From NCBI GenBank assembly GCA_977020255.1, contig CDROCS010000480.1:744001-808000 (forward strand): a stretch of DNA of 64,000 nucleotides. The letters run 5' to 3'. Shown here in pieces: positions 5,736 to 60,170 of this stretch. The notes beneath the pieces were generated by a model. The model saw nothing but the letters and a program-made list of their open reading frames with translations, made no database searches and was not told where the DNA came from. Within the stretch, counting starts at the first letter, position 1; each line of letters begins with the position of its first letter. The stretch comes from Obrimoposthia wandeli (Eukaryota). The position numbers and the translations under genes are program-made.

Positions 5736-5738
5736 TAC

Positions 5739-28068: not shown

Positions 28069-28825
28069 GTGAGTTCATGTAAATTTATAGTATGCATTTA
28101 TAGATTACACAATAATAAATCGGAATTACCAAAATTCTGACATAGTAAAAAAAAATATTCTAAAGAATTAGGATAATATTCAAAATGACTGTATTTAAAC
28201 TAAAGTTATACAATAAATCATGTAGGAATATATGTATAAGAGAATAGAAAGTCCTGTAGTAATAGAATACAATGAATTTATACTGACGTGATTCATACAT
28301 GTAGTCAATATGTATAGGTGTTTACACATAATCACATTTTTCGATGTTTTCGTAGAACGGTAGTTAAAATGGGTTTTAAAGGCTCATCGCCTCAACATAT
28401 CGACGGTAGTTATTCAAGGAATGTCTCAATGTCGTCATGTTTGAACATTTCATACTCATCTCTTATCTCTCAGTGATTATAGTTTTATTGTCGAAATATT
28501 AAGGAGGCTGCTTGATCAGAAAGCACGTTTATAACAAATGAAATATGTAATGGCTCTTGAGAAATCCCTTGAATGAGGCACTCATTCTCAAAAAAATCAT
28601 ATCCGATAAAGTTGTTAGCTTTTGTAAAATGTTCACTTATTTCACGGAAGAAAGCAAGTTAAACTTCTGAGATAATATATTATTTTACAAGCTCAAAGTA
28701 ATGATTACCACGAAGACAATAATCATAAATTTGTGCTCAGTTGCCAATCTTCTGGAAGTTAGTAAGTGCTTGTTTTCGAGGAATTCCTTGAGTCAATGTT
28801 CTTTTAACAACATAAGTCCTTGTCA

Positions 28826-29088
28826 TCTGGGATTCCTAAATTCCACGCACAAACCGGATTAAAACCTGTGAATCATGCCTTAACAACGGTTAATCTCTTT
28901 ATATTTAATTATTATTGAAACCGCTATGTTGAATATATGAATTAATCTTCATTTCTCTGGGATTCCTAAATTCCACGCACAAACCGGATTAAAAACTGTG
29001 AATCATGCCTTAACAACGGTTAATTCTTTATATTTAATTATTATTGAAACCACTATGTTGAATATATGAATCAATCTTCATTTCTCTG
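28826..29088 (+). repeat. 130-bp tandem duplication
   Basis: tgggattcctaaattccacgcacaaaccgg occurs at 28828 and 28958; near-identical units. Confidence 0.92.
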
Positions 29089-30844: not shown

Positions 30845-31127
30845 ATTCATCCTACAAATCAGTTCGTCTCGCAAGGACTCATTGCTGTTTTGGTCATTAC
30901 TTGTGATCGGAAACCGTACTTGAACCGTACATTGAAATCGCTTTTCCGTCATCATCCCGATCCTGAAAATCCATCGCTTAGTCGATTTCCGATTTATTTG
31001 TCCAACGGATGTCCAGAAACCGATATTGACAGTGTCTTCAATTTATTCAAAAGTCGACTAAGTGGGTATTTTAAATACCTCCCTAATACAGATTCCATTT
31101 TCAGAAAACTAGAAAGTGAGGTACCAG
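30845..31127 (+). CDS. MGAT1: MGAT1 exon 2
   Basis: Acceptor ttcag|; IAVLVITCDRKPYLNRTLKSL..FPIYLS; phase-1 donor gtagag at 31128. Confidence 0.85.
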
Positions 31128-32229
31128 GTAGAGACATTATGGAATTTTAGTTCACTAATTCATTCAGATTCAATGATGTTAGAACAATCAATGCTGCTTG
31201 GCAAGTTCAATTTCTTGATATTTTTATTTTGAAGTTTATGACACACATTTCATTGAAGTTATAAATTAATAAAATTCAAGCTAATAAAAATATATTTCAG
31301 TTAAAACGTCATTATGTAGTCATCATCATCTGAATTAGTGAATTATGTAATAAACTATTCAGTTTAAATGTCTTTAATTCTCGTTGGGATTGGTAATTCT
31401 AAGCAATGGTTGGCTGGTTTAAATGCAGATTCTAATGGGAAAATATTATTTTGTTTTTAGTTTTCTTTGTTTCCATTTCTTAATACTAGGAACTACAAAT
31501 GGTATGTCAACATTTTACCATTATACCACTTCTAAAAGGTATTGTAGGATAAGATGCATAAAAAATTTGGAGCCCATGCAATATCTTGCTCGTTTATCTT
31601 GTATTAGAAATGATTATAATAAACAATATTTTCTACTTCTAATATTTTTACCTTTTACAAACCAATTTAAAACAAAGGTAATATTTATAAATTGAAATTA
31701 AATTCATATTATATTTTTATTTATTATAAATAAAAATATAAAAACATCAAATACGAAATTTAGTCTATTTAAAACTTTCAGGAAATCTGAGAAACTCATG
31801 AAAAAAGTTATAAAAATGTTATAAAAGTTGCTTGTTTGTGGCTTTCATTCAAATCAGACCACAGCAGTGAAATCAAAATTGGATTCGCCTTATCAAAATG
31901 GCAAGGCGGTCAACAATATTTAATAATGTGTTTGTTATTTCAACAAACTAATTTGTTACACAAACCATTTATACAATATATATAAAATATTGATTTTATA
32001 TTTAATCTATATTATTCAATCAAGTATCATTTATTTAATCAAAGTAATTTAATTTTTTGGCTAAATCTTGAATAAAATATCATTCAAATTGCAATAAAAA
32101 TATATAAAGAGTTATGTAATCAGAAACCGGAAGTATCCTATCGAGAAAATCTGTTGATAAAATCCTTGTATACATGTATAAATATAGATTGTGTTTGACG
32201 AATCTGACTCTTTTGAATTATGTATACGA

Positions 32230-32760: not shown

Positions 32761-34408
32761 AAAGAAAAAATAGAGGTGTTGGCAAAGATTTTTTAGTGAA
32801 ATTGAAAGATATCTTCTATTTGATTCAAGAAATAAAAGAATGTATATCGAAATGTGTTTATTGTTCCAAAAGAAAAATTGAAACAAGCAGAACAAAAGAA
32901 ATATATATGCCTATAGTCAAATATATATTTTTCTTTCCACAAAACATAACTTAAAGTAATCAAAACAATAAGGTACAACAAAATATAATTATACCTGAAA
33001 TGTTCTTTAAAGTTCAGAAGTAATTACTTTTTTGTTTTATTGGGCTTTGAAATAATTTTAGTGCCAATCACGATGCTTGCTGTGTTGGAAAAAAATCCTT
33101 TAAAGAAAGAAATAACTTGATTATTTTTACAGTTTATGTTTACAGATTACGATTTTTGAAAATTTTAGAATGATAATAATTTATGCTTTAACATAACTGT
33201 TTTTTTTTTTTTTTAATTTTTATTAAATCACGAAATACGGTTTTTTAGTATGTTTCTTTTCTTTTTTAAATTGCTTGGTCGAGAATACTAGAAAATGAAT
33301 AACTAGTGTGAACATTAGTAAGTAATATCAGACATTACTTTACATTTAAGTAATGATTGTGATTGAGTCAATAATTCATGAACGAGACAGGGTTTTTTAG
33401 ATACGCGTCTAACCAATGAGAAGCTAAAAGAAACAAATGAAGTAGTCATGGATGAAATACCAATTATGTCTTCTGAAAACAAGCAAAATGCTAAAATATC
33501 CTCTTCATGACAAATGATTGTGCTAAATAATTGTTTACAGATGGCACAGCGATGAAAGTTTCTATAAAATAACCGATCAAAATTTTCAGACCTAATTTGA
33601 CAGCATGTATCGATGAAATAAAAAACTAAAGAAATACTTTTCTTGGCTAATTGGATTGCTCAATTTAACAGTGTAGAAGAAAGATTTAATCAAGAGTAGG
33701 TGGATGTGTCCGGTCTAATTTACCCCTCTCCGCCTCCCTCCGGAGGTACCACTGTCCTTTAAAACCGTGCATGTGTGTGGAGTGAAATTTCCCCCCAACA
33801 CTCAGAAAAACTAATTAACCCCTTTAAAATTGAAAATATCATAGTACTGCCCCAGAGTGAGGAAGTGCCTGAGAGGCCATCTAAGGGCCAACACGTGCCC
33901 TTCGACCCCGCGGTGGTCTGACGAGCAATACATATACAGGGGCGCGAAAAACCTTTCCTTATAAGAATTTATATCTAGATACATACAAAAGGCTAGTTTT
34001 TCTTACATGTAAACATCTCCCTCCAAACATGTACAGTCAAGAAAATATTTCTATTTTAAATCCAAAGATATACATGTATTCAATCATCAACCAAAATTAA
34101 GAAAATACTATAAATTATTTGAATAATACACTCTTATTGGACATTGAACTCAGTCAACGAAAACTTAAGAAAATAGTTCTATTTTCAAATAAAATATTTT
34201 TTTATCCAATGACATTCACGCATTCAAACGTAGTTAAAAAATTGAGAAAAGCCTACGGATTTTTCAAATAAATTATTTGAATAACCCACTCTCATTGGAC
34301 GACAAAAGAGGGTTAGTCTGTTGTTTTTTGTATATAAGGAAACCTCTTTTCATTATTTTTCATAAATCAAGAATCCCATTCTACAACAACGTTGACCTAG
34401 ACGAAGAG

Positions 34409-34690
34409 ATGGATGTTCAACTGTATGGGGATCTCTCTCCAGTACAGCAGCGAACACCACCACCGGCGCAGTATATTGACTTACTTAGTCAAGACTCGTC
34501 AGTGATGAGCGAAGGAGACGAAGGAGAAGCAGCAGCAAGATCGGAGCTGTTACTAGAAGAATCGCCATTGGCCAGCTCAACTCCGAGAGAAGAACCAATG
34601 AATGCGAGATGTGGGGTACAGAGATCCCAATATAGCGACCTGACTAGTCAGGATTCGATTGAGAATTGGGAAGACTGTACTCCCAGGTAA
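34409..34690 (+). CDS. Acidic/Pro-rich Polinton ORF
   Basis: ATG 34409 lies ~70 nt after GTATATAAG (34330-34338); low-complexity protein; may be the 5' part of the next gene. Confidence 0.45.
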   Translation: MDVQLYGDLSPVQQRTPPPAQYIDLLSQDSSVMSEGDEGEAAARSELLLEESPLASSTPREEPMNARCGVQRSQYSDLTSQDSIENWEDCTPR

Positions 34691-34786
34691 AACACAAAAC
34701 CCAGTCGTCCGGCAACTTTAGTAGTAGCAGCAAGGAGATCCAATCTCTTCGACAATTTTGAGGCGGCAATCAAACGCCCCTGGAAA

Positions 34787-35573
34787 TTGTCTCAGCCGGA
34801 GATAGTACTCGCACCAGACTCAGACGAGGAGCTGTTCACCGATGACGTACCGTCGGATGGGGAGGAGGACTTGACTCCATTCAGCGACGAATGGATACAG
34901 CCAATTATCTGGGCCCCAGGAGCCAACGAGTCGATGGTGGCAGAATTGGACGAAGACGAGTGGCACCTGTTCACCGACGATTGGGATGGTCTCACTCCCT
35001 CTGCAACTCCAACTCCGATAGCCGACAATACGATACCTGAACCGTTCAGAAGGCCGCAATCTCCGATACGTCCTGTTAGGAGAATAAAGGTGACGAATGA
35101 GGTTAGTCTATTAATTTATTTAAAATGTTTTTTTATTTCAATTTTAGAAACTTCAACTGGATTTGGCACCGTCACTGACCACGGTGGAGAGGCTGATTGA
35201 ACCGCAGTACTTGGCGAGTCAATGTAGCCAGAAGGATCCAAGGAGTGAGCAGCGATACCTACCGACTCCGGATAAAATTGAGGTAAATTATTATAAATTA
35301 GATAATAATTTTAATTATTCACATAGGAAGCCAAATTGGTGGAGGAAATTTGGGAGGAGGCAACTCTCAAACTACCCAAGGATAAAAAGCAACCGGTAGT
35401 GAGGAAACTGCGACGCCATCGTGTAAAAACTTCAACTGTCCACAAGAAGAAGGCCAAGTTGGTAAAACAGCCTAACTTGTCTGTCATTGAAGTAAATTAT
35501 TTATATGTTTAAATTTTATTGATATTTTTTATTGCAGGAACCAATACAATTAACTGAGGAGACATGGGGCTAA
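34787..35573 (+). CDS. Spliced acidic Polinton accessory gene (4 exons)
   Basis: Phase-0 GT-AG introns 35102-35147, 35283-35326 and 35492-35537 join stop-free exons; same architecture at 20050-20676. Confidence 0.75.
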
Positions 35574-35735
35574 ATTTCTCCTTTTTTACATTAAATTTTT
35601 TTAGGTTATAGATTTATTAAACTTTCATTTGATAAATAAAAATATATATCATTTAATTGAATGTGATTGGATTAAAAATATCTTAAATTTATATATATAT
35701 AGGTTCAAATTTATTAACCTCTTCATAATTAAAAA

Positions 35736-36086
35736 ATGGAATTCATTAAAATGAAAAGTCTGGTGACGAAGATTGAAGAAAACATCGTGAGAAATGAAAA
35801 GATAGAAGATTTAAGAAATAGTGTCTTCAATCAGAATCTGTACGCTGCTGTCGCGCCCGAGTGGAATCGTCGGGTGGAGATTCAGGACAGGCGGCTAGCA
35901 GAACGAAAACGGATCGTGGAGTGGAACAAAAAGATGGAATTGGAAAAAAAGAAACTAGAAAAAAAAAGAAAGGAGATGGAGGACAATCAGCGAGCTGCAA
36001 GAAAGAGAATCCTCCAGATTAAACCGGAAGATTTTTTGAATATTTTTTTTGTATTTATTGATTATTTTTGTTACATAATTGTCTAA
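35736..36086 (+). CDS. Coiled-coil-like Polinton ORF, unknown function
   Basis: Open 116 aa, E/K/R-rich heptad-like sequence. Confidence 0.5.
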   Translation: MEFIKMKSLVTKIEENIVRNEKIEDLRNSVFNQNLYAAVAPEWNRRVEIQDRRLAERKRIVEWNKKMELEKKKLEKKRKEMEDNQRAARKRILQIKPEDFLNIFFVFIDYFCYIIV

Positions 36087-36456
36087 ATATTTTACATAAT
36101 CATACTCAATATAAACAATTTTATATATAATATTTTTTTTAACATGGATAATAAAAATTGGAATAAATTATATATTAAATTATCTCCTGATTTAATGGAA
36201 GATTATAAAAAAAAATTACTTCTCAGAAAATAATACTTCTAAAATTGTTGGAGATAAAATATATAATTTAATTTTGAAATATTTAGGTATGTTTACATTT
36301 AATATAATTTATTTTAATATTCATAGGAGAATTGACAATATATACCAATCTTAACATGAAAAAATGAATCCTGAGTACTTTGTTATTTTAATAAATTTTT
36401 GATTAATAGTTTTTTTCGTTATAAACAACAGGATTTGCTTCAAATTAGGGTAATTA

Positions 36457-36950
36457 TGCAAGAATATATCATAGATTTTGAGGCTTTCATTAACTAAATT
36501 GGAGATTATATTATAAAAGAATTATGTATTATGGATGTATGCGACGTTTTTCATCCTTTGCATTTCATATTTCATATATATATCCCGTTTAGAAGTTTAG
36601 ATTATAAGAAAAAAATTACTAATTTATATCTAACTAATTATTTTCATTTATTAAAATGGAAAGGACATAAGGGTTTTTGTGAAATATGTATTTTCGATAC
36701 AATAAAATCTAATTTTTATATAGAAAATGGAATTTTTTATGTTTTAGATGAAATGGACGGCAAAAAGTATAAGAATTAAAAAAAATATTTTCCAAATTTG
36801 AGATTGAATACTTTAATATTTCACGTGATCATCTATTAAAAATTCCACAAAAATATTTGCTGTCCATATCGTGATCATGGTGACCACTGCGCATATAAAA
36901 AATGTTTAAGTCTATCTTATGATTACTTGACAGGTATATAAACAATTCTT
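36457..36950 (+). pseudogene. DEDD-exonuclease-like accessory gene
   Basis: MQEYIIDFEAF..KELCIMDV..CPYRDHGDHCAYKKC; stops and frameshifts; homolog of 4120-4611. Confidence 0.65.
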
Positions 36951-37183
36951 CTAATTAGAGAAATTCATTATTTACAAATTTTTCATCCAATTACAAATAA
37001 TCCTTTTAATTGGAGGAATAATAAATATTAAAAATAATATTATCAACTAATAACATATAAACAATCCTTCTCAGTTTCAATTCAATATTTTCATTCAATA
37101 AGAAAAGAGTATGTGTGCATATATTTTAGTATATAAGCAAACACCTTCTTAATTTAAATCCCCGACTATTTGAAATAATGACT

Positions 37184-37573
37184 ATGATAAGAAACTATAT
37201 TTTTTATTTCTTTATTAATATTTAATTTTAGATTACATGTAATCTGTTTCCAGCATATTGTGGTGCTTCAGCTCCGCATGGAGGAGAGTCGTGCATGGAG
37301 ATAATGTTTGCTTACTATCGGAAAAAGTCTCATGGGCTTCCATTTTTTGTCTGCCCCTTCTGCAGAACAATGGAGGAGAAGGAGTTTCGAGACTTCTTCG
37401 GTGAACATCGAGATCACCTATCCTGTTTCACGGCCAACAACAAGAAGAGAACTATCATGCAGTTGATGCGACATTCGCAGGCCGCTCCAGCTCCAATTCC
37501 AGTTGCAGTCGTTCAACCCGTTTACTGTCCTGCGATTGGTCCTTCTCTCCCATCGCCTCATCCCCTCAAATGA
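37184..37573 (+). CDS. Cys/His-rich putative Zn-binding ORF
   Basis: Exon from 37232 ITCNLFPAYC..SC..FFVCPFC..HRDH; start codon inferred at 37184 via a non-canonical intron. Confidence 0.55.
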
Positions 37574-37794
37574 ATAACAATGAGTGGATGAACGACATCT
37601 CCCAAGAAGATTTTGAGATGGAGCAGGGGAGCGACAACAGCTGGTTGGAGACCATCGAGGAATCCGATTTCGTCGAGTTAACAGACGACAGCTGGATGGA
37701 TTCTGTCAATGAAGAGGACTTCCAATCAGCTACAGTTGGATTGCCTTCATTAGGTATTTTTTATTATTATTTTTCTGATTATTTTTTAAAATTG

Positions 37795-37825
<31 letters not shown>

Positions 37826-40060
37826 TTTTTTATTCAGGAAATACCTTGATACAGTCGTCATCCGCTACGACATCTATGCATCCCTTTTGCGAGTGCCTAC
37901 ATCGATGTTTGCATGCCTTAGAGGTAATAATTTTAAAAAATATATTTATTTTTAATATATTTATTTCAGCAGATGCAGAAGCAGGGGTCTACAACAGCCG
38001 CTTCTTCGTCGGCAATGTCAGCTACTCCTACTTCAAATGCAGCATCTACTGTCTCATCATATGCGGTAGCATCTACTTCAGCTGCGATTGCCTCAACATC
38101 GGAAGCATCACCAATAGCAGCACCTTCCACATCAGCTGCGATTAATATAACTAGTTGTTTTCCTGTTCAATTAGGGGGAGGTTTGTAGGAAGAAAGAGGC
38201 GAGGCCAATTTCTTAATAAGGTCCCACCAAAAAAACGTAGAGAAAACGGTGCTACTATAGAGTATCACCTAAATAATAAATATGTTATAGTTAAGGTGCC
38301 ATTAGGAAATGAAATTTTATTAAACGTACGTGTAGATTCAAATATTGAAAATCTGTTAAAATCAGAAGTGACTAAATTAGGACAGGCTAAGGTTCAATTT
38401 TGCGCAACAGTGCAGTTTAAAAATATCAATGAGGAGACTAAAACTTGGGTAATTTCACATAGAGCAACTGTTTTCTATGATACTTTTGTAACTAAAATTG
38501 GAAGAAACCTTGATGAAAATATTGCTAATTATAGCGAGTTAAGTAGTGGATGGACTCTAATTAAAATTCACGATGTTAGCGTTGTTCTAACAAAGTTCAC
38601 TGACATGATATATCTTTCGGGGAGTTCATACATTCCTTCACCTAGATCTCTTCTACTTTCACGTTCCATTGTTAACGTACAAAACTGTGATAACCTTTGC
38701 TTTCTGTATAGCGTGTGGCCATCCTCAAAATAAATGTAATTATTGAGCATAGAGAGCGTGTCAGTAAATATACTCCTTTTTTAAATGAATTGCAGTATCA
38801 TGGAATAGATTTTCCTGTTAAATTAACTGCGATATCAAGATTTGAACATCTTAATAACTTGAGTATTAATGTATTCAAATATAATACTGATATCCCAGTT
38901 ATTGTAACAGATGATGAAATTTTAAAATATCTTTTTGTAGATGTAATTTATAGGAGCAAAAATAAGTGGACTCAGGTCAACTTAATTTTGCTCGAACATA
39001 ATAAAAAATTATATTATGCTGCAATTCCCAATTTAGATCGTCTTCTAAATTTAGATAATGGAGCCTTACCGGTTAGGATAAGGTGTAAGTGGTGTCATAT
39101 ATGTTTACATGGATTCCAATCCGAGCTCTCTTACAGCAAACATCTGACACTATGTTCACTAAATCCTGATGATAATACGCTAAATAGCATGCCCAAGGAT
39201 AAGGATTTAAAATTCAGGGATTTGGCAAAATGCATACTCGTGGAATTCAGGGTGAATGCTGATTTTGAGTCAATTCTAGCATTGCACGACCAGTATGAGA
39301 GTATTCACCTACCGGCTTCGACAGGACTACTATTCTTAGGCCCCAATATTACATAGTATCATAAATTTTCCGGTCCAAATTGTATTTTAGATTTTATGTT
39401 AAAATTAGAAGAATTAGGAACAACAATTGTCAAACACTGGTATGATCTTAATGCTCATCAAGCAATGATCATGACAGGCATAGACTGGGTTAATTTTAAT
39501 TATTGTAGATTATATTATTTGTGTGGAACCCAGTCTAAGTTGGTCAGAGATCACGATCATGTTACGGGGCGATACTTGGGAGCGGCGTGCAACCTCTGTA
39601 ACCTTGGCCGTCGTCTCCCTAAAAAACCACGCATTCCCATCGTGTTTCATAATCTCAAAGGATATGATTTGCATCATATACTTAAATACGCGTTGGGTAC
39701 ATTATGCTCTTAGGAAATTTCATGTATACCTCAAACTTCAGATAAATATTTATCTTTAACTGCATATACTGAATTCTGCAGTTTAAGATTCATAGATTCT
39801 CTGCAGTTTTTGAGTGGTTCTTTAAAAAATTTAACGGCATCTTTAAATGCATGGCCAATCACACAGTCAGTGTTCCCAGCTTCGGTTAACGATAAGGGGA
39901 TTTTTTAAATTTTAGATCCCTATGGCACCTTGATATGGCACTTTTTGTTATTTCAATACTTTTTTTAGGTTGGGCCTTATCTTTGCTGACAGATCTCATT
40001 GTGATTTTGTGTTTAATAAATGTATTAAAAAAAATTCGTCTTATGTCTTTTATGTCTTTT
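37570..40060 (+). pseudogene. pPolB with spliced low-complexity N-terminal exons; frameshifted and 3'-truncated
   Basis: Introns 37754-37837 and 37924-37969; SGSSYIPSP..IVNVQNCDNLCF, VRDHDHVTGRYLGAACNLCNL, VFHNLKGYDLH, LRFIDSLQFLSGSL. Catalytic palm not seen. Confidence 0.9.
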
Positions 40061-40109
40061 ATTCTTATATTTTTTAAGGATTTAAAAAATAATTCAAAAT
40101 AAAACATTA

Positions 40110-41100
40110 AAAATATTTATTTTTATGACACACTAATCGTTTTGCAACGATAACCATAAAATACATAAATATCTACAGTTTCGGATCCTGATTGTATCTT
40201 GCTGTATAATACTCTTCTTCGTCCTTTTTAAATAGTCGAAACAAGTTTGTGTGGATAATACATTGCAAGTGGATCAAATACATGTATTGTCCACTCTAAC
40301 ACAGCGGTTCCCAATCTTTCTGGTGCGGTGACCCCTTGATAACATTTGCCAAGTTGCAGTAACCCCAAGGATAAAACAATTTGTTATATTTTAACTACAA
40401 AAAATGTATTGGCACAATGTTTTTTATTTACAAATTTGCAATAATTGAATCATAATAATTTTATCGACACAACAATTTGTTATATTTTAACTACAAAAAA
40501 GTTCGAATTGCGAAAACCAAAAAGCGTCAGTGAGAAAGCTGTGCTTGTTTCTTTCTTGCCAGATCTGAAATCCTTGGAGGAGTCTTTGAAAGAGCATAAC
40601 GCAGATCATCTTCTGCAACATGTCTGCTCCTGTATTTAGATTTGATAACCAATAAGCTTGAAAAGCTTGTTTCACAAAGATATGTTGTTGAAAAAGGAAG
40701 AATCAGGCGCAAAACTGTTTTTATTAATTTTATCTAACTTAGTAGAATATGGGTTAATTGACTATTATAATTAGAGAATAGTGATATTACCGCGAGAATA
40801 CAACATAAGGACATTCGGTATCATAAAACAACTTTTTAAAAGGCCTTGCTGCCTTAAGCGACTCCAGACAAATTATCAGGCGACCCCAGTTGGGATCGCG
40901 ACCCACAGGTTGGGAACTGTTGCTCTAACATAAATAGCTATCCAAAGTTCTCCTGGTAAATTCGAGGTATGAGTATTGATAATGTAACCTCCAGATTGAA
41001 AAAATGGGATCATATCAATAGGATAAACTCCATTGAAATTATCACTCAGGAACTTCTCTGCTGATTCTTGTACTTGTACTGAACTAAATAAAAATTAATA
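40110..41100 (-). pseudogene. Adenain-like protease split by a hAT insertion
   Basis: FNGVYPIDMIP..YIINTHTSNLPGELWIAIYV [insertion 40302-40922] TIHVFDPLAMYYP; catalytic His replaced (GEHW to GELW). Confidence 0.85.
40302..40922 (-). mobile_element. Non-autonomous hAT (Charlie/Buster-type) element
   Basis: TIRs cagcggttcccaa / ttgggaactgttg; 8-bp TSD CTCTAACA (40294-40301, 40923-40930); hAT dimerisation C-terminus LPFSTTYLCETSFS..EDDLR..KQAQLSH. Confidence 0.95.
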
Positions 41101-41116
41101 AATGTCTTACTTCATT

Positions 41117-42348
41117 CTATAATATGACAGTTCTGTTTTTATTGATTTTTATTTCCGAATCAAATACTCCGTAAATAAGCACCGTAGTAGGATGTGTTAA
41201 AGCTGCATTGAACTTTATTTCTAGTCGTAAATTTCCATTCTTTGGTAGTTGGCATTGGTTTATATCAAAGTCTGGTGCCAAAACAAATGTGAAGAATGGG
41301 CAGCTACTTTTAAACTCAGTGAAATAAATACCATTGTTTATATTTTTATCTAGTTGACCCAAATTCCGAATAATAGATTGCGTATAAGCCAAAGCATAAG
41401 CGTTACCTTCGAAATCTGTTTTATATGTTTCACGATAATCATTATTTCTTGAAAGTGTCACTGAACCTACATTAAGATTGTCAAATTGAGTTACATCTGT
41501 CGTATAATTTCCTACAAACTTTGCAGTTTTTTTTTGAAAAGAAATTAAAACGAATTTCGGTAATCTTACATCACCAAAATTTTGATCATTATTAAAAGCT
41601 TGTGTACCCGTACTTAAAGAATAGGATATAAGTTTAGTTTCTCTAATAGGATAACAAGCATTGTTTTTTTCCATTCCTATATTATGTGCCATTAAAACTA
41701 GTTGCTCGGTTTTAACTCTTCGAACATACAATTTTGCATCCAAAATATCAAGTCTAGGTTTTAGAACGTCTGTGCTTATCAAAGAAAAATTATATTTATT
41801 ACGCTTCAAACAGAGATGTACATTAACACTGGGAATTAAATATTTCAGTTGTTCAAAGAAATTCAATTTCAAAGACCCACACATTTCGTAAGCTTTAGAA
41901 CCTGCATTCCATTCTTTGCGAATTGCGACCGTTTTATCATAACTAATGGTTGCCAAATTAGTATTTTGAGTATCAGTACTATAATTCAATAGACTTTTAA
42001 TCAAAGCTTTATGAGCATAGAAAGATTTCCACCTTCAATTTTGACATTATTAAGAGTAACAATGGCATCACTAAATAAAGAATTAAAGATATAATTTACA
42101 GGTGTTACATCGGCATTTTCATCTAAATTAGTACCATCCCGATTTAATACTTTTATTTGAACATAAAGCAAAGTATCATTCAAATCTAAATACTTGCTAT
42201 TGGAACCATTAATATTAAATTCTAAATCGGTTAAAGTGGTTCCTGAAACTGAGTTAACTAGAAATATTTATTCAAAGGAAGCATTATCTACAACTACTTG
42301 TGGAAGTGGTTTATCAAAAATACACAATTCGGTTTTGGCGCAACTCAT
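41117..42348 (-). pseudogene. Major capsid protein (double jelly-roll, PY)
   Basis: MSCAKTELCIFDK..LEFNINGSNSKYLDLNDT..HKALIKSLLNY..RLPKFVLI..GNLRLEIKF..VLIYGVFD; one stop and one frameshift near 42001. Confidence 0.93.
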
Positions 42349-42398
42349 TTTGCAAATATTGTTCCTTCAACTTTCTTACGTTTGTTTATATTAATTTT

Positions 42399-42722
42399 TT
42401 ACTTATTTTTACGTTTAAATCCACTACCTCCTTGGCTTTTATTTGATTTACATTTTCTTATCAAATTAGCAACTTCAGGTAAAACATTATCAAGTTCATC
42501 AAGCGCATGCTTCTTAAAAGTTGGTATTAGTTTATTGTCATTAGATGAAAGGTAATCCTTTCCTAATTTTGATATAAATCGCCCGAGTCTCTTTAAAAGA
42601 GGAAAGGCAAATCTACTTAATGTTCTAAGCCAGCCAGATCCATATTGCTTACCAAAAAAATATGTTAATTCACCACATTGTTGGCTTTGACTATAAGCTT
42701 CAATTATTTCTGGATTCGCCAT
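42399..42722 (-). CDS. Conserved Polinton core-like basic protein
   Basis: Intact 107 aa; KQYGSGWLRTLSRFAFPLL; basic C-terminus after QGGSG. Confidence 0.75.
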   Translation of the reverse strand: MANPEIIEAYSQSQQCGELTYFFGKQYGSGWLRTLSRFAFPLLKRLGRFISKLGKDYLSSNDNKLIPTFKKHALDELDNVLPEVANLIRKCKSNKSQGGSGFKRKNK

Positions 42723-43329
42723 TTTGTTTTCTTAAATGTATTGTTAAACTTGTCTTGGCCCCGTACGTGAAATCTATTGGTTGTCCGGAATCATCTATAA
42801 TATTTACTTCAATATTGTTTATAGAAAAGAGAGCAACTGGAAGATACATTGGTTGATCTATACACATAACGACAGCGTCCCCATCTTTGTTTCATTTTTA
42901 AGTATCCCGTCTATTACGAGATAATGTTTGTTCACTATCAAAACTGAATTGAAGAGCTTCTTTTTCAGTTTCAAAGTTAATTTTAATAACTTTAAGATAT
43001 TTTAATAGATTTTTAAATCTGATTTTGTTATTTTCAAATATTACTTTCACTTGTTTATCTATACAATTGTAATATAATTGTCCTTTAATATCAAACCCGA
43101 TCACAACTTCAGTTGTTTTTTCATGATCAAATTCGTTTGTAAACAAAATATGTGAGTTTTTTCTGATAGTAATTGGAGAATAACAAAAGGAAAATTCTGT
43201 TAAAGCCGCTTCCCATTCTCCTTGTAGATTTATAAGGTTTTCCCAATCGATAATAAAGTTACTAGCGTCATTATCTGGTTGAGTCTTTGGGCATCCGTTA
43301 CTAGGTAAAACCATATACATAGACTTCAT
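42720..43329 (-). pseudogene. Minor capsid / penton (PX)
   Basis: MYMVLPSNG..LINLQGEWEAALTEFSF; C-terminal MYLPVA..IEVNIIDDSGQPI; shorter than the 6090-7115 copy. Confidence 0.85.
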
Positions 43330-44354
43330 ATTATATTAGATGCTGATATCCAAGTTGGGTCTGAATAACCATGCCATTTAACAAAGTATTGTTTATGTTT
43401 GCCGGCAACCTTAGATTTTAATATTTTTTGAATACGGAAAACGCTAGGTTTATTTGATATTACTTGTAGTTCTTGCTCGTAAAATTTACTGTGAATGATA
43501 TTATTGTCAGCATCTTTAATAGTATACATTATTGGATTACTCTTTTGATCAATTTTACTTATACAAAATATTTCATCGCTTCAATTCTGATCAAAGCTTT
43601 TAATAAACAGAGTAGAGCTAATTTTCAAATTTCGAACATATTTGTTTTTCTTATATTTAGCTTTTTTAATATTTTCTTTTTTATTCCTGTCCATCCAAAT
43701 ATACATAGAGTTTTTATTAGTAACATCAACAGGTTTCATTCCCTTGAGAACTCTATGTTCAGAGTGATTATTTGCATGTATTATTTTAGTTAAAACTTGG
43801 ATCCATTTTTTATTTCCTTCTTTTGTGAAATACTTTTTTATTCGATCTCTTAAAGTACGATTAAATCTGTCTACTACTGCTGCTTTGTATTGTGAAAACA
43901 CAGAGTAGTGATTTATATTATTTTGTTTAAATAATGATTGAACTTGCTTATTATAAAATTCTTTTCCTAAATCAGTTTGCACATTTTGTGGAATGTCCTC
44001 TTTTAATATTTCTTTAATGGCTTCAAGCATAGCTATTGAAGACTTTGCTTAAACTGGAATTGCACGAGCAAATCTGCTAAATACATCAATACATGTTAAA
44101 ATATATCGATATCCCTTATTAATGGAAGAATATGGGATCATCTCCATCAAATCCATTTGCCATAAATTATTATGACCGCTGGTTTTGTAAGCTCAAGTTG
44201 GAAACCTTCTTCTTGTCGGCTTGTTCAGACTGTATGCTAACTGATCGCTCAGCCATTTCTGCGTTTTCTTGTAATTCTGTTTTATTCTTTTTGCTAATTT
44301 TGAAACTCCTGTGTAGCCAATTGGATCTTATGGATTGAACCATATCTTCTCCAT
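43326..44354 (-). pseudogene. RVE c-integrase with chromodomain
   Basis: QLDLADM-like region (NGFDGDDPI), VQTDLGKEFYN, AAVVDRFNRTLR, QYFVKWHGYSDPTWI; stops. Confidence 0.93.
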
Positions 44355-44439
44355 TACAACAATTTGAATAGAAAGAAATTTTAATTTAGGTAAAGAAAGG
44401 TTAGCACCCATATCTTTAGGTTATTTTTGAAATAATTGT

Positions 44440-44766
44440 TTATGAACGTGTCGCAGCTATAATACTACTGATAATTGAAGCAACAACTGTAATAACAGCC
44501 CATATGAAACCACCATTATGTTTAAGAATAATATTTCGTTTCCTTTTTTTACTTTTTACATTAGCAATATCTAGAGATTTTCTATATTTCTTTAATACAT
44601 TTTTTCGTTTTCCAATTTTTACTTGACCCAAAACTATATTATACAAAACTTCCCATAAATCATCTACAACAAAAGATGGAAAGGCTTTAAGAATAATCAT
44701 TCTCTTATGAGAAGAAGCTTTGACCAAAGCTTTAAAATAGGGTATGCTTCTTTGTATTTTCTTCAT
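44440..44766 (-). CDS. Conserved small Polinton protein with C-terminal GGF plus amphipathic/hydrophobic tail
   Basis: ..EVLYNIVLG..LKKYRKSL..KRNIILKHNGGFIWAVITVVASIISSII; intact 108 aa; between ATPase and INT. Confidence 0.7.
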   Translation of the reverse strand: MKKIQRSIPYFKALVKASSHKRMIILKAFPSFVVDDLWEVLYNIVLGQVKIGKRKNVLKKYRKSLDIANVKSKKRKRNIILKHNGGFIWAVITVVASIISSIIAATRS

Positions 44767-44945
44767 TTTAATAAAAAAGGTTCAATTTGAATATTGTTTA
44801 TATTCGAAGCCATTTAAGTTTTCTTTTATTTCTAACTACAGATTTGAATAATTTATTCACTTCTTTTTTCTTAATGATTCTTTTTTTTGATTTCTTAGGC
44901 TTTACTTTACGTTTTACTATCAACTTCGTAAAAGGCATTGCAAAT

Positions 44946-45592
44946 TTATTTTTTATGATTGTTTTCTATTTGTTTATAAACAGTTACTCCCTTAGAATTA
45001 AATATGTCAGTTAAAACACGTAAATCATCTGGGCAAGCTTGTGTAAAGTCAATAAATATATACCCATGTGCTTGTTTAGCAGCATCGTGGAATGAATCAA
45101 CTAGAAAGTTCTTATTTTGGGGAAATACCTGTCTGACCACGAAATCTACAACTGTTTGAGCTCTAGGATTTTTAAATAAAACTAAGTAATGTACATTAAG
45201 ATTTCTAGTTCTATGGTGACCTCCTTGGTGAAAAAGATTTTGAGTGATAAATATAACTGTTACTTCACGATGTCTTGCAATCTTCGTAAATAAATTATTA
45301 AAGTCCGATTCCTTATGAGTCTCCTGATAAAAATCATCAATTATTATTACATCTTCTTTTTCAATCTTTCATACCAATTTGCATCAAATCCTTCAATAAA
45401 TTGTATTCCCTTCAACTTGCAAACTTCTGTTTTGGTTAATCCGCTTTCCCCTCCTCCACCATCATGCCAATAAATATTTTTGAAACTAGATTTGAAAAGA
45501 GATTCATTTTGCAACAATCTACATACGAAATGTGTCTTTCCACTTCCACTGGGACCAACTATTTGAAATACAGCATTATTATTTAGCTCCAT
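44946..45592 (-). pseudogene. A32/FtsK-HerA-family packaging ATPase
   Basis: Walker A GPSGSGKT, Walker B IIIDD, RHREVTVIFITQNLF, HGYIFIDF; one frameshift near 45355. Confidence 0.95.
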
Positions 45593-45929
45593 TGCATATA
45601 CTCTTTCATTTTTAATATTGTTTATATTATCATAGAAGTTTCCTATTTGAAATGTACAATGTTAGAGCTATTGTAGATGAAATACAAAAATTAATTAATG
45701 AATATTTGGCTATAATTTTATTTATTTGTGTACGATTTCTAAATTCTCGAATAACGTGTGATCTAACCAATATTTCAATGTTATCTCTTGTTATATCATT
45801 ATTTTTTAATTCTGATAAAAAATTTTACCCCTAATTTTTCCAGAAAATATTTCGTCGACAAGACGATCTACTTCATTGTCTGTATTTATAGTATTATTCA
45901 TTTGAAACAATAAGTTTAAATGGGTTTGT

Positions 45930-46429
45930 TTATAGAAAAGATAACAAGATGTAATAAGATATATTTTCTAAAATCAAATCAACAATGTCTGGATAATCAA
46001 AATTTTTCAATACCAATATCATAACTTTACCACTGGAAAATATATTTACACATAGCGGTTTAAACTTCAAATAACTGAGAGCAGGAAAAATTTCTGGTTC
46101 AAACATGCATTTTTCTTTCATTTTCTCTGCAGTTTTAAAAAGATTTATCTGTTTCCCGAGATTAGCCGAAATCGTGATTGATTGTATTGCAGTGATTTGA
46201 ATTCCACATGGTAAATTGAACCCAAGCATTGGTATTTTGTATCCCATAACACGACAATTTCCTAAAGAATTCAATATGAAAATAAAATAAAAAACTAACC
46301 TGTAGGAAAAATAACAACTGTTAAATTGTCAAACATTTCTACATATTGTCTCGGCTTCCATTCATTAAATGGTAAGTACGAAACATCATCTTCTGTTCTA
46401 CCTTTATAATTTATATTTACGAGTTTCAT
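45930..46429 (-). CDS. TATA-binding protein (TBP)-like gene, 2 exons, 153 aa
   Basis: Exons 46429-46300 and 46261-45930, 38-nt GT-AG intron. Repeat 1 LVNIN..WKPRQY..TVVIFPTGNCRVMG; repeat 2 IQSIT..FEPEIFPALSY..VNIFSSGKVMIL. Confidence 0.88.
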
Positions 46430-46544
46430 TAGACTGAAATTGTATTCTGTAAAATCTTCTTTATATATGTCTGAACCTGCTTTTTTATTGCACGTTTCTT
46501 GTAATTATCTTGCAAACCTATTATAATTGGATGATATATTTCTT

Positions 46545-46647
46545 CCAATCAATTTTGATTTTTAATATAGATTTAGTCCAATCAAATTCAATGCTTTAGT
46601 TATATTAACCAATGAGATTCATGTCTTTGTTAGAAATTAGTATAAAA
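46545..46647 (+). promoter_or_regulatory. Candidate bidirectional promoter: three CCAAT boxes plus TATAAAA
   Basis: CCAAT at 46545, 46578 and 46609; TATAAAA at 46641; between the divergent TBP-like gene and ORF 46679. Confidence 0.5.
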
Positions 46648-46678
46648 GAATGTGCCATTGGAGGACAAATCACAGTAA

Positions 46679-47155
46679 ATGCATTCATATCAAAGACAAT
46701 TATCAACGATGGACGATAGCCAACGAGTATTAAGCGATGACGAAGAAATGTTTGAAGAATCGGATAAGGATATGTATGAAGAAGTGAAACAATATTTCAA
46801 ATACAAAGTCAGATTCTTGAAGAAGGCTCAACTGATTGCTTTAGTAAATCCTGTGACAATTGAAAGAAGAAAGTTCAGCTATTATCTATCACGTATTCAA
46901 AAACCTGATTTTCAATATCTTAAACAGAAAATAGAAAAGGCAGTTCCAAATTTTACTTTTAATAAGAACGAATTTTATATCCGAAGAGCCGATGAAGCAT
47001 TTCTAGATGACTATGGAAGATATGTTGATATTGATGCGTTTCCGAAAAAGAAGCAATGGACTCTAACAATTCGACTTTATGGTTACAAGAAAGATGAAAT
47101 GGGGACAAAGTTGCCTATGTGGAAAATTGAACGTGCTCATATTTCTATGTTTTAA
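46679..47155 (+). CDS. Conserved Polinton ORF of unknown function (possible OB-fold ssDNA-binding protein)
   Basis: Intact 158 aa, acidic N-terminus; homolog at 14133-14800. The functional guess is inference only. Confidence 0.7.
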   Translation: MHSYQRQLSTMDDSQRVLSDDEEMFEESDKDMYEEVKQYFKYKVRFLKKAQLIALVNPVTIERRKFSYYLSRIQKPDFQYLKQKIEKAVPNFTFNKNEFYIRRADEAFLDDYGRYVDIDAFPKKKQWTLTIRLYGYKKDEMGTKLPMWKIERAHISMF

Positions 47156-48749
47156 CTTTTGTGTGTAATAAATTGTAATCGGTTTTACTATGTTTCTTTC
47201 ATTTAATAATCAGTTTTATTTGTATCCTATTTGTATCTTATGTGTATTTTTTTATAAACATTGTTTTTAATCAGTTTCCTTATTTTAGAATGGATATGAG
47301 ATGTGTAGGAAATTTTTATTATCCAGAAGAATTTCAAAAGGAAAACTATGTAATATATTAAAGAGGTATCAAATTATACGAGTTATGAATCCTGTGAAAA
47401 TATCAAAAGTGGAGAATAAATATCTCATCGAAATTTTAACAACATCTGATATTGATCAATTGAAACATATTTTAGGATTTTAATATTCCTGATTATGTAT
47501 ATGAATGAAATTGTTTCCAGCTTGAAACTGATCCCTATCTGGCTTTTAAAGATAATCTAGGATATTTGATTGCTCCAATTCTAGATGAAGAACTATGGAA
47601 TATCTCAATACGTCTCAATTGATATTTTGCTGATGACTGGAAAATGCAGCCACTTTGGACTTTGAGTGAAGCCAATATGTTGTTTTATGTTTAATAAATA
47701 TTTTGAAAAATAATTTTGACTCATATTTTGGTTTTTTCTCCTCTAAATTATATAGATCTGACCTAATTTTTCTTTTATAAATCTGACCTAAATATTTAAC
47801 ATAAACATGTAGTAATCTAAAATCTTTCTTAAAAATAGTAGTAATATATTCACATATTATTTTAAATCTCATCTGCGATAATCCACCGGGGCCAATATGG
47901 ATTCACGTGGTCTTCTCTAATCACTTTTAAGATATGCGGTAAATTTCAAAGTAAAATAAAAAAATATGTGGGGGGACCCCCCTCCTATTCGATTATTTTT
48001 CAATTTTTCCCTACACACATAGACGAAATTTCACTCCACACACATGCACGGTTTTAAATGACTGTGGTATCCTCCCGGGGGAGGAGAAGGGGGTGGATTA
48101 GACCGGACACATCCACCTACTATCAAGATATCGAAGTGTGAATGGAAAAGGAATAATTTCTTTAATAGCTGTTCAAGAAAATAATGATAAAATAAAGTCG
48201 ATTAGAAATTTTTCTGACAGTTAAGTCAATTTGCAATCAGTAATATCAAAGATTTCGTAAAGAAATACAGCACCGGTGAGAAAAACTATAACATACATTC
48301 CCAACACTGGATTTGAAAAATACCTATATGCAATTTCATGTTTAAATATCAGGACATCGAATTTAAAATTAATTTACTTTCTCACAAGGCTGAAATTTGA
48401 ATTTAACTGTAACAAAGATCACGAGTCAGGTATTAAATAAGGTACTAACATGACCATATAGGCCAAAATAAATTTTGATCAAATGTTGAAGTTATGCTTA
48501 CTCAGCTCATAACAAACGCACAAACAATATTAATTAATAATAATTAATTATCAACACGGATATTTTAATGGTGCCCGAGTTCGAGTAATATTGTAGAAAA
48601 CACTAGCAGTGATTAAAATTAATTTTATAACCTTTTTATGATTTAACTAAACAATTCGAACTCAGTGTAATGCAGTTGTATAAGAAATTGTTTTATTTGA
48701 CAAATATTCTCATTTATTAAATGATGAAAAACGTTTTTCAAATTTGCAG

Positions 48750-49041
48750 GATATAGTAAAGTCGCTGATCATTACAATGGAGCGTTAAACTGGCTTTTTC
48801 AGAAGAACATGGAGAAATACTCAGTTTTAGACAGTAAAATGACACATATCTTCAATCCATCTGCATTGAAAGCTGTGATCATTGTTGAAGACGATATAGA
48901 AGTGTCACCAGACTTCTTTCAGTATTTTAATAGTACATATCCAATTCTAGAAACTGACAAAACCCTCTACTGTGTCTCAGCTTGGAATGACAATGGTCGC
49001 GCAAATCTCACAGATTCCAAGGGTGCAGATCGAATGTTCAG
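48750..49041 (+). CDS. MGAT1: MGAT1 exon 3
   Basis: (G)YSKVADHY..VIIVEDDIEVSPDFFQYF..CVSAWNDNG..RMFR; phase-1 acceptor and phase-2 donor fit the neighbouring exons. Confidence 0.95.
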
Positions 49042-49699
49042 GTTACTGTTCTCTTTAGTTTTTTGAGCATCACACGGGTTTTAGTCATTGTAAAATAAGT
49101 AGACTGTATATTATGCACACAAAATGGCATTGGTATGATACAGTCGATACACTGTCAGCAACAACAGTAGAAGACGATTTAACAACGGTTGTTATGCACC
49201 ATTAAATTATATTTTGGAATGAAATACTTTGTCCTTATTACCTATATATTTTTTTAATATAAACTATAAAAAATCAATAGATGCATCCCGGTGTTATTTA
49301 GAATTACTTAAATTTTCGTTTGAATATAAATTTTAAAAATTATTAAATTTAAACCAGCTTAAATTAATTAGTAATTTTGTTAAGCATAAACAGTTGCTTA
49401 CATGTTGATTTGTGACAATTGACGAATCCTGCTGCTCAAGCGTCAATAAACAATTTTTTGTTGACTAACCCACTAACTCCAGTGGTGGAAATATAAATTT
49501 CTAATTAATTTTCAATTTCAAACTAAATCTAAATACAATTTAAAAATAAACGTTAATTATTAATTTACAACTAACGCATAATATTACTAAGCATGAAATT
49601 ATATTATTCATGAAAATAATTTAATTATCATTGCGAAATTTTATGATATTTTTTAGTATATGCCTTTTTATATGCTTTTAACATTTCCCCTTCCTTTCT

Positions 49700-52893: not shown

Positions 52894-53446
52894 GACGGAC
52901 TTCTTTCCGGGTCTTGGATGGATGATGCTCAGATCACTGTGGGACGAGCTGGAGCCTCAATGGCCTATCATTTTTTGGGATGACTTCTTACGCTCCCCTT
53001 TTATCCGCAAGGAGCGCCAATGCATTCGACCCGAGATCAGTAGAACCTCTAACTTTGGTCAAATTGGCGTGTCCGCATCCCAGTTCTACACCGACTACAT
53101 TCAGGCCGTAAAGACAAATCGACAAATCGTTGACTTCAGTAAGCTCGATCTCAGCTACCTCTTACACGATGAGTATCAGATCAACTTCATCTATCAACTC
53201 AATCATAGCAAAGAATTCCCTTTTGCCAACGTTCCAGTTATTTCAAAGTACAAGAATCTACCGTCTAGTATAAAAATACCATACAAATCTGAGAGTGAAT
53301 TTAAAACCATCGCTTTCCAGTTCGGTTTGTTTCCAGAATTGAGATTTGGCATGCCCAGAACTTCGTATCTTGGAATAATTTATTTTATGTACAATAACAA
53401 AAATATTTACATTTATCCAGCCAAATTTAATAATACAATTAAATAA
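52894..53446 (+). CDS. MGAT1: MGAT1 exon 4 (last); four exons total 1260 nt = 419 aa plus stop
   Basis: (R)TDFFPGLGWM..WPIIFWDDFLR..RQCIRPEISRTSNFGQIGVS..QFY..LDLSYL. Confidence 0.95.
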
Positions 53447-58559: not shown

Positions 58560-60170
58560 ATGCAGGTACAAATATTCTCTACAGCAATCGTAAGATTAAA
58601 CTCCCATATCGTGCCTCTGTACTTTCCAGTGATGCATTTTATAGCATCTTACTATGGCACTTGTGAGTACGGTATTAACATTACCCTTAATGCAAATTAC
58701 TACTTAAACATATTCACCATATGTAGCTCCTCTAGAGATTATAATTTCGAGATTCAGCTCCTTCTTGATTTTCTTGTGAGCCTCAGTATACCTTGCCACC
58801 TAATTTCTGTCCCTTGTATGAACGACTTTTTCATTTACAGATTGAGCCAGGCAACTCCAAAAGTCTCTGCATTCTTGTATTCGTTTGTTTCCTAAGGATA
58901 TTAGTTCAAGTCTAAAGACTTGTAATCCTCCACGATCCGCATAAGCCATTTTGAAGACCTGGATTATGGCCTGTATATTATACTCATCTGTGATACTTTG
59001 GATACCGAATCGTCCATGATTTTTGTGACCAAGCAAGGTTCCAAGATGGGTATTTTTAGGCAGTCCTGCAATTCTTTGGAGTTGTTTTCTCACTTGCCAG
59101 CCATAAGCGTATTTTGTTACCGCATTAGTACATCTATCACTGGTGAATCTGTAGTAAGAGATGTAGTTTGGTCTAAAACTGAATATAAACTTGGAGTGCA
59201 CAAAGTTTTTATACACTGAGATATTCTGGTGAGGGTACAGTCTGCTATTCATGATCTTCATAGTCATGTCAAGATTCCCCTCAAATCGATTCTCGTATAT
59301 GTGTTTTGTATCTGCATTCATGTTCATACCAAGATACCTGTAGGCACTATCTGTAATTACCGCAGGTTCTCCGTCGATTTCTTTCTTTATATATCTGTTA
59401 ATGCTGCTCCAGAAGGGAATTCTGAGTCTTCCATATTTACTGGGTCTTAATCTTAATTGGGTCATACTGCAGTATCTGTTGCAGTATCCACCATCGTCTT
59501 CAATACAGATTTGTCCTCAGCGAGTAAGGCAAGATCATCCGCATATGCTAGGGTAGCAAATTGTGTAGAACCCAGTTTGAACCCAGCATTGGGTACTTTG
59601 TTCACTGACTCAATGACGGAATTAATACAGAGATTAAAAATAATCATGGACAATTGGCAACCTTGGCGTACACCCTTCTTAATGGGTATACCTTTAATCT
59701 TAGTTTCTCCACATTGGATGGCGGTTTTGTTCTCGTAAATACTGTGTACAAGTTTACACATCTCCTCAGAAATGTTAACGTTCAACATCATTCCCACGAT
59801 GAAGTCTTTGGGCACTGACCCAAAGGTATCAGATATATCCGGGAATGCAAGATGACAGGATCGTTTGTTTCTGTGACACTCTTGGTTACGAGATTGAGTA
59901 TCACATTGTGCTTAAAACAGCCCTTAAACTTGCTGATACTCTTTTGGGATGGATGTAGAAGTTTTTCTTTCCATGACCAGTTTCGTAGATCAGAAGCAAT
60001 TATGCTTGTCAGTACTTTGTAAAGGAAACTCATAACCGCAATTGATCTCCACACAGTAATGTCGCTATAAAAATATTTTCTAGCTTTTGGAATAAACGAT
60101 GATTCAAGCAAACAAAGCGGTGGCAACATTAACATTTCATTTCGGGCTTTCAATCAAAATCCCTGAAACA
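58560..60170 (-). mobile_element. Decayed non-LTR retrotransposon, R2/NeSL/R4-like
   Basis: WRSIAVMSFLYKVL, SQK..GC..H, GVRQGCQLS..FNL, LAYADDL, YRYLG, HGRFG; frameshifts. Confidence 0.9.

Follow-up and report, generated by a model that had tools for sequence, protein, structure and literature searches.

A Polinton-borne family of shortened TBP-like proteins and its association with a variant TATA box upstream of packaging and capsid genes

Late genes of beta- and gammaherpesviruses depend on a viral mimic of the TATA-binding protein (TBP), a TATT box and host RNA polymerase II (Pol II), according to the accessible parts of PMC12529657 and PMC4893493. These mimics (KSHV ORF24, EBV BcRF1, and HCMV UL87) resemble the Polinton TBP-like protein considered here in their viral TBP fold and their polar DNA interface. 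As far as the same partial texts go, however, they are large multidomain proteins in a six-protein complex whereas the Polinton protein is stand-alone and 150 aa long, ORF24 lacks the TFIIB-binding glutamates that the Polinton protein keeps, and the variant base of the box is at position 4 (T) in herpesviruses vs. position 7 (C) in Polintons. Structural similarity to the herpesvirus proteins was weak (E = 0.012 for BcRF1 and 0.003 for U58), so that the comparison is one of analogy and not of membership; none of the partner families of the herpesvirus pre-initiation complex (vPIC) was found among the 37 element ORFs scanned. Since the element carries a shortened TBP together with packaging and capsid genes behind a matching non-standard TATA box, the analogy suggests that it may redirect the host transcription machinery to its own virion genes in a herpesvirus-like manner.

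Homologues of TBP also occur in NCLDVs and mirusviruses (ASFV B263R-like, phycodnavirus, and mimivirus proteins), with which the viral TBP fold is shared (26 BFVD matches at E ≤ 0.001); these proteins are 9–21% identical to the Polinton TBP and mostly longer, and many viruses of this type encode their own RNA polymerase. With cellular TBP (eukaryotic TBP/TRF and archaeal TBP; PF00352) the Polinton family has in common the saddle fold, three of the four intercalating phenylalanines, the asparagine of repeat 1 and the EPE(L/I)F stirrup, whereas it differs in length (~150 vs. ~180 aa), in a repeat 1 devoid of helix H2 and most of H1, in the loss of the first intercalating Phe, in a polar concave face and in an overall identity of 16–28%, and forms a separate group in the tree (SH-aLRT 91).

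The element that carries the gene resembles the Polintons/Mavericks/adintoviruses, as described in the accessible portions of PMC8502044 and PMC10748475, in its protein-primed DNA polymerase B (pPolB), integrase, A32-like ATPase, putative capsid and protease genes, inverted repeats and 6-bp duplication. A viral TBP in relatives of Polintons is partly known already, because the legend of Fig. 5 in Starrett et al. (2021; PMC8502044) labels TBP in a group of elements drawn from non-animal data sets, without naming the element; in the portion available this is a legend label, without family, structure or promoter analysis. No TBP occurred among the labels taken from their Fig. S2, which maps animal adintoviruses, neither TBP nor TATA appeared in the searched portion of the supplement text, and the main text of Jeong et al. 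(2023; PMC10748475), as far as accessible, mentioned no TBP, TATA or promoter. Within the openly accessible literature, at the level of titles and abstracts, no description of the present TBP family or of its box was found. Full novelty, which the original prediction had left unconfirmed, is not supported, in view of the TBP label in that legend. Introns have already been reported in dinoflagellate Polinton-like elements, according to the accessible part of PMC12166617, and an intron alone is therefore not new.

The window analyzed here is a stretch of 64,000 nucleotides of Obrimoposthia wandeli (contig CDROCS010000480.1, positions 744,001 to 808,000). It contains a whole Polinton copy of 14.4 kb (33695..48121), delimited by inverted repeats and a target-site duplication and flanked on both sides by host exons of the GNT-I (MGAT1-like) type (PF03071). 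The left terminal inverted repeat (33695..33791, plus strand) starts with AGTAG, and the right one occupies 48025..48121 (minus strand); the arms are 97 nt long and 84% complementary, and the 6-bp duplication ATCAAG is present at 33689-33694 and 48122-48127, as is typical of Polintons/Mavericks. GNT-I (MGAT1-like) host genes lie in tandem in the window (17473-18051, 30830-31150, 48809-49066, and 52922-53446), and the Polinton is inserted between two exons of one of them.

The hallmark genes pPolB, retroviral-type integrase and A32-like ATPase were all found in this element, and each of them was broken. On the minus strand, the A32-like packaging ATPase is split into two pieces (44958..45592; Pox_A32 E = 4.8e-6 in a relative) and the retroviral-type integrase with its chromodomain contains in-frame stops (43329..44357; rve E = 1e-12 in a relative). 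They are followed on the same strand by a putative minor capsid protein that is broken and falls short of the length seen in relatives (42727..43332), a putative major capsid protein in two pieces (41117..42348; 56–60% identity to a 403-aa ORF of the metagenome locus L048) and a fragment of a putative maturation protease (40879..41094). The capsid and protease ORFs matched no Pfam family; their sizes and order are as expected for Polintons, and we assigned their names presumptively from size and order. Of pPolB, the N-terminal half remains (38356..39905, plus strand); it includes an HNH/Endonuclease VII-like domain (PF02945, E = 8e-5) at 39396-39713 (plus strand), also present in a relative (L030:9125-12391), a domain that the accessible text of Jeong et al. 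(PMC10748475) describes for nematode and oomycete pPolB2. The TBP-like gene heads this minus-strand block of ATPase, integrase and capsid genes, as originally predicted, and its Polinton context was borne out by the repeats, the duplication and the gene remains. Its divergent neighbor (46679..47155, plus strand), with homologues in 15 of the 84 fetched loci, possibly encodes a single-stranded DNA-binding protein (SSB); the lead came from the ESM Atlas (score 0.80–0.84), with a Pox_I3 match on 12% of one cluster.

The TBP-like gene lies on the minus strand and consists of an exon 1 of 43 codons plus 1 nt (46300..46429), encoding a reduced N-terminal repeat, a 38-nt GT-AG intron in phase 1 (46262..46299) and an exon 2 that ends with the stop codon (45930..46261). 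Exon 2 encodes the end of repeat 1 and the entire C-terminal repeat, including the EPE(L/I)F stirrup. The spliced product has 43+1+109 = 153 aa, whereas the unspliced frame meets a stop after 44 codons. Exon 2 matched the Pfam TBP family (PF00352) with E = 5e-11 and 42.6 bits, vs. a curated cut-off of 22.9, and its 35 matches among PDB sequences were without exception TBPs or TBP fusions; exon 1 searched alone matched no Pfam family. Three intronless homologues (~50% identical) share the Met start and align without gaps over the exon junction. An intron of 40 nt, unrelated in sequence, occupies the identical position in the metagenome locus L063, and in a second family of the host genome (~70% DNA identity) all 14 copies fetched have an intron of 35–56 nt at this site, preceded in each by an exon 1 of 43 codons; the site is unoccupied in the three intronless homologues and in a third family of the host genome, in which the gene encodes 154–156 aa without interruption. 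Because intronless relatives span the junction and divergent elements carry unrelated introns at one site, the comparison of relatives gives good support to the predicted intron and the 153-codon frame as genuine. Among the indel rows listed for the TBP gene, which refer to contigs and to one sample, three of the five well-supported ones fall in the 38-nt intron; none of the 15 joints listed, with 197 more unlisted, falls at 46261/46300, a result that speaks neither for nor against splicing. Further candidates for short AT-rich GT-AG introns were observed in the left-arm genes of the element (35100-35545, 36285-36335, and 37750-37975), and the SSB-like gene of relatives also appears to be split by an intron.

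The claim of an intact gene holds for the window copy as far as its open frame is concerned and no further, since the copy deviates at three of the 27 columns with ≥95% conservation (protein positions 51, 106, and 127) and the element around it is broken. Probably, the window copy is a decayed relic of the TBP and box system described below.

Searches starting from this gene pointed to a large family. A profile made from three sequences recovered, at E ≤ 1e-3, 493 of 1353 candidate proteins, 36 clusters (50% identity) scored E ≤ 1e-30, and a metagenome scan gave 79 loci out of 229 pattern matches. In 17 of the 21 metagenome TBP loci of at least 4 kb, homologues of the ATPase, integrase, capsid or pPolB genes were found alongside, and on these comparisons the TBP-like gene is a member of a large Polinton-borne family. 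In the host genome, exon 2 gave 31,386 first-look candidates, a figure that is not a copy number, and each of the 150 places that were scored showed 94–100% identity. One family member (P0199; 219 aa) carries a duplicated C-terminal repeat, in two stretches.

Values of dN/dS between relatives ranged from 0.08 to 0.49 in 13 of 15 pairs, reached 1.11 in one near-identical pair and were affected by saturated dS in the remaining one; the window copy compared with L063 gave 0.25. From this pattern of substitutions the family is judged to be under purifying selection between families. Between the window copy and 14 copies of its own family, which are the best matches and hence biased toward open frames, there were few changes and the ratio was near-neutral (0.33–0.94), as expected for decay after insertion.

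The protein of the window is 16–21% identical to host-type TBPs. In the tree it fell in the group of short TBPs (SH-aLRT 94), nested within 63 family rows that were separated from cellular TBPs (91), whereas the host TBP (L105) clustered with eukaryotic TBP. This was a quick, unrooted IQ-TREE search of 79 rows, with 21 of the 105 rows of the short clade, and 32 of the 63 family rows were without genomic context. A recent copy of a host TBP or TRF, the alternative that had been raised against the gene, is contradicted by the low identity and by the position within a mobile family, and the 493 family proteins, the many genomic copies and the metagenome relatives speak against a recent private insertion. 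Searches of IMG/VR for the TBP family, its ATPase and its capsid found no member; five weak TBP matches were obtained there, and the four placed in the tree fell among cellular TBPs, outside the Polinton family, so that IMG/VR supplied no TBP-less control from outside the host genome. The 'Archaea' labels found in the ESM Atlas were rejected as evidence of origin.

An AlphaFold2 model was obtained for a relative (P0005; 50% identical to the window protein) from an alignment of 105 rows, with a pLDDT of 95.5. Compared with TBP it gave a full-length Foldseek match (E = 8e-9) and a VIA Z of 13.3 (rmsd 2.6 over 146 residues); the top structural matches were all TBPs, and the best match of another kind had a Z of 6.7. 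The TBP fold originally predicted for the window protein is thus supported through this model, which has the two-repeat saddle. The prediction of both repeats was correct for the C-terminal one, which is whole, but the first is reduced: by alignment, its H2 and most of its H1 are deleted in the short clade (median 150 aa, range 144–164, vs. ~180 in cellular TBP), and in the P0005 model the final strand of repeat 1 is joined to the opening strand of repeat 2 without a helix. A longer clade (165–173 aa) retains both helices of repeat 1 by alignment.

The four intercalating aromatic residues had been reported as all occupied, which proved right for three. These three phenylalanines are kept in 105, 104, and 105 of 105 rows, whereas the first is not conserved: the loop is shortened, a conserved Gln is found there in 94 of the 105 rows, and the column that holds the Tyr of the window protein (WKPRQY, compared originally with YNPKRF) contains C, Y, and F in 31, 25, and 16 rows, respectively. 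Placing this Tyr at the first aromatic position depends on one alignment register, and a profile-profile alignment with the long clade yields another. The acidic C-terminal stirrup E-P-E is conserved (100, 105, and 105 of 105 rows). Several columns of the concave face show near-invariant polar residues in place of the hydrophobic ones of cellular TBP; among the near-invariant differences, two Val of repeat 1 are replaced by Asn and Arg, respectively, and a Thr by Met, and in repeat 2 an Asn is replaced by Ser and a Leu by Asn, at positions that we take to be DNA-facing. TBP uses repeat 1 for the 3' half of the TATA box, the Phe pair of this repeat being positioned at base pairs 7/8, and helix H2 is a docking site of host regulators. 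For yeast TBP, residues E184 and E188 are needed for TFIIB, according to the accessible part of PMC12529657.

Upstream of the genes of these elements we examined the pattern [CT]ATAAAC[AG]; its degenerate ends were picked with these sequences in view, and the TATAAAC core alone had been set in advance. In the window, TATAAACA occurred 29 times, vs. 9.4 ± 2.8 in shuffled sequence, and within the block from the ATPase to the capsid gene nine matches to the pattern lay on the coding strand vs. one on the opposite strand. Minus-strand TATAAACA boxes were located at 45927..45934, overlapping the TBP stop codon and 33 nt upstream of the next ATG (45901, whose frame is short here), at 45619..45626, 34 nt upstream of the ATG of the packaging ATPase, at 44971..44978, 40 nt upstream of a small basic ORF (44938), at 44795..44802, 36 nt upstream of a putative core protein ORF (44766), at 42816..42823, 101 nt upstream of ORF 42722, and at 42383..42390, ~43 nt upstream of the putative major capsid start. 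Boxes of the form CATAAACA, also on the minus strand, were placed upstream of the small ORF/integrase region (44437..44444) and 68 nt upstream of the putative minor capsid ATG (43390..43397). The distance to the start was thus 33–43 nt for five starts, and 68 and 101 nt for two others. On the plus strand, a TATAAACA box (36420..36427) lies ~36 nt upstream of an ORF starting near 36456, called DEDD-like by eye and without a match in the Pfam search. The TBP-like gene is preceded by a putative TATA box of canonical type, TATATAAAG (46459..46467, minus strand), 38 nt upstream of its ATG.

For the distribution in relatives we counted, in deduplicated loci, the sense-strand boxes lying no more than 100 nt from the ATG, and left out the cellular TBP loci L093 and L094. 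The box was present before the ATPase in 18/19 loci, the small basic ORF in 1/1, the core protein in 13/15, the small ORF preceding the integrase in 4/4, the minor capsid protein in 7/10 and the major capsid protein in 9/9. Other genes had it as well (integrase, 11/11; ORF before the capsid gene, 5/6; protease, 3/5; DEDD-like, 9/12; PLA2-like, 7/9; SSB-like, 4/21), whereas it was never found before the TBP gene (0/46). Six structural classes taken together had the box in 52/58 cases vs. 0/46 for TBP (Fisher P = 5e-23, a value that overstates independence as many of the metagenome loci stem from few related data sets). Antisense counts were zero in every class except TBP (4), and shuffled means were below 0.5 in every class except TBP (0.95). 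Distances to the ATG peaked at 35–39 nt, and the box persisted where it falls within upstream coding sequence; a narrower window and pattern gave fewer boxes (e.g., integrase 5/14 and protease 0/6). The C at position 7 was fixed before the ATPase, core, and capsid genes (15, 13, 7, and 7 matches) vs. 1/37 TATA-like matches before the TBP gene, and 18 of 85 boxes ended in G. The box is not strictly structural, because the DEDD-like, PLA2-like and some SSB-like ORFs also have it upstream. Box and TBP co-occur in both clades, short and long, as well as in three Polinton families of the host genome. As observed by eye, many TBP promoters (upstream regions of L023-L074) contain CCAAT, a TATA box and an initiator-like word, TCA(T/C)T, and TBP genes devoid of a TATA box often carry TTGTTTTA ~45 nt upstream.

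As a control, eight copies of a different type of Polinton from the same genome (ATPase, Pox_A32 E = 4e-7; core protein, Adeno_PX E = 2e-5) displayed the box at 1/38 gene starts, two protease-like rows whose start was not Met being left out of this count. Scanning these copies with the TBP profile gave no detectable TBP (best E ≥ 0.026 within the span); they all belong to a single lineage, are fragmentary and lack an identified capsid gene, and a TBP may have escaped detection in them. The genome search with PF03175 and PF04665 from which this type came first gave the third TBP-bearing family, and the control was nested in one such region. Taken as a whole, these counts represent a strong sequence correlation between TBP-bearing Polintons and the variant TATA box.

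Other features of the window and of the host genome were recorded alongside. A second TBP-like gene, decayed and of another Polinton family, is present at 13402-13849 (minus strand; Pfam TBP, E = 8e-8) and adjoins an SSB-like relic (14446-14796, plus strand); decayed Polinton fragments with pPolB, capsid, integrase or ATPase remains occur at 1952-8143, 21750-22162, and 63609-63846 (all minus strand), with several TATAAACA boxes on the minus strand between 3953 and 6195, and a broken non-LTR retroelement is located at 58800-60135 (minus strand; RVT_1, E = 8e-13). The host assembly, of 1.35 Gb, harbors three or more Polinton families with a TBP, besides one type in which none was detectable, the elements often being nested, and gave ~20,000–31,000 first-look candidates each for TBP, ATPase and pPolB, numbers which suggest that Polintons fill a large share of it. 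The host has ordinary TBP genes of its own, two canonical ones placed head-to-head (L105/L106, G000:C238) and several divergent paralogues (L107-L110), of which two occupy long open frames (231–241 codons). Accessory genes in or beside the relatives encode a ubiquitin-conjugating enzyme, a dual-specificity phosphatase, and leucine-rich repeat, RING finger, KilA-N, and PLA2-like proteins (L048:222-719, L023:4008-4316, L052:1918-3327, L063:1710-2168, L076:7136-7996, and L076:9080-9481).

We regard as probable, on the sequence evidence above, that a TBP of altered specificity starts late transcription of these elements through host TFIIB and Pol II, 'late' being a label assigned by gene class. 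Early on, host Pol II would transcribe the TBP gene from a promoter that is either ordinary or devoid of a TATA box, and the intron would be excised by the spliceosome. The TBP-like protein would then bind [CT]ATAAAC[AG] before the packaging, core, integrase, and capsid genes, with its conserved C-terminal repeat holding the 5' half of the box and its remodelled N-terminal repeat reading the C at TATA position 7; a preference for YATAAACR over TATAAAAG is expected of the family. Finally, the acidic EPE(L/I)F stirrup would recruit host TFIIB, and thereby Pol II, and the loss of helix H2 from repeat 1 would release the protein from partners and regulators of host TBP. Lack of the first intercalating Phe could weaken DNA bending, a point that counts against this role. 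TFIIB was represented in the genome by 29 first-look candidates vs. 19,768 for TBP, with none detectable in the elements, and its profile matched 0/37 further element ORFs; the host TFIIB gene is divided over exons. The originally proposed promoter-specificity factor for late capsid genes therefore receives indirect support, as the box precedes structural genes and is lacking before the TBP gene and in the Polinton type without detectable TBP. In a stronger version, a wide clade of Polintons would encode a one-protein late switch, in which a minimal YATAAACR-specific TBP alone recruits host TFIIB and Pol II; this appears plausible from the sequences, and we stop slightly short of calling it probable.

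The same correlation could arise if host TBP/TFIID recognized the box as a weak variant of TATA, with the TBP of the element acting as a decoy that ties up TFIIB or TATA boxes and damps host or early transcription. A host-type TBP has been crystallized on a C(-25) TATA variant (PDB 1qn3, by entry title), and the TFIIB-binding stirrup is the best-kept surface of the protein whereas one intercalating Phe and helix H2 are gone, as could suit a decoy. A decoy, however, would have no need of near-invariant polar residues facing DNA, nor does it account for a C at position 7 that is fixed before the ATPase, core, and capsid genes and nearly absent before the TBP gene; moreover, the box is lacking from the Polinton type of this host that has no detectable TBP, which speaks against reading by host TBP. 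We consider this explanation unlikely. Nor do we find it likely that the box is bound by a host factor of the forkhead type or by another protein of the element, while the TBP-like protein has another task, such as bending the DNA termini in the course of replication or packaging, or serving Pol I/III promoters. ATAAACA does agree with the forkhead consensus, TTGTTTTA-like motifs stand upstream of several TATA-less TBP genes, the TBP gene often adjoins the SSB-like gene (15/84 loci), and several small conserved ORFs without assigned function could supply another binding protein. Yet the box is strictly on the sense strand with its peak 35–39 nt before the ATG, as a core-promoter element would be, the boxes ending in G (18/85) suit forkhead factors less well, and box and TBP are found together across the short and long clades and in three families of the host genome.

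Compared with those explanations, we attach far less weight to a viral TBP that acts on the box only within a larger element-encoded complex, similar to the herpesvirus vPIC and bypassing host TFIIB. KSHV ORF24, which has no TFIIB-binding glutamates, requires partner proteins according to the accessible part of PMC12529657, but the Polinton family retains the stirrup glutamates, no accessory ORF recurs widely apart from the SSB-like and DEDD-like genes (the largest other cluster comprising 10/130 ORFs), and the elements of the third family are compact (11 kb), with little room for extra genes. We give hardly any credence to a functionless passenger, captured from a host and copied along with the element. 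The near-neutral drift of the copies of the window family and the broken element around the window copy would fit it, whereas the purifying selection between families, the 16–21% identity to host TBPs, the presence of the gene in hundreds of divergent elements and an intron site conserved across 50% protein divergence all contradict it; the passenger reading is largely refuted for the family, and may hold for the window copy taken alone.

It has long been asked whether Polintons go through a true virus-like cycle. A dedicated transcription factor and the matching box before packaging and capsid genes make this cycle directly testable; the one-protein switch, if true, would be smaller than any viral pre-initiation system known so far and separate from the solution found by herpesviruses, and would provide genetic evidence for a timed early-to-late viral program in these 'transposons'. 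The box could also mark late promoters and expressed copies in RNA data, and the TBP family would constitute a natural experiment in specificity, graded from full-length to H2-less forms that share one common box. As the element is very abundant in the host genome, a rogue TBP of this kind could affect transcription of the host itself.
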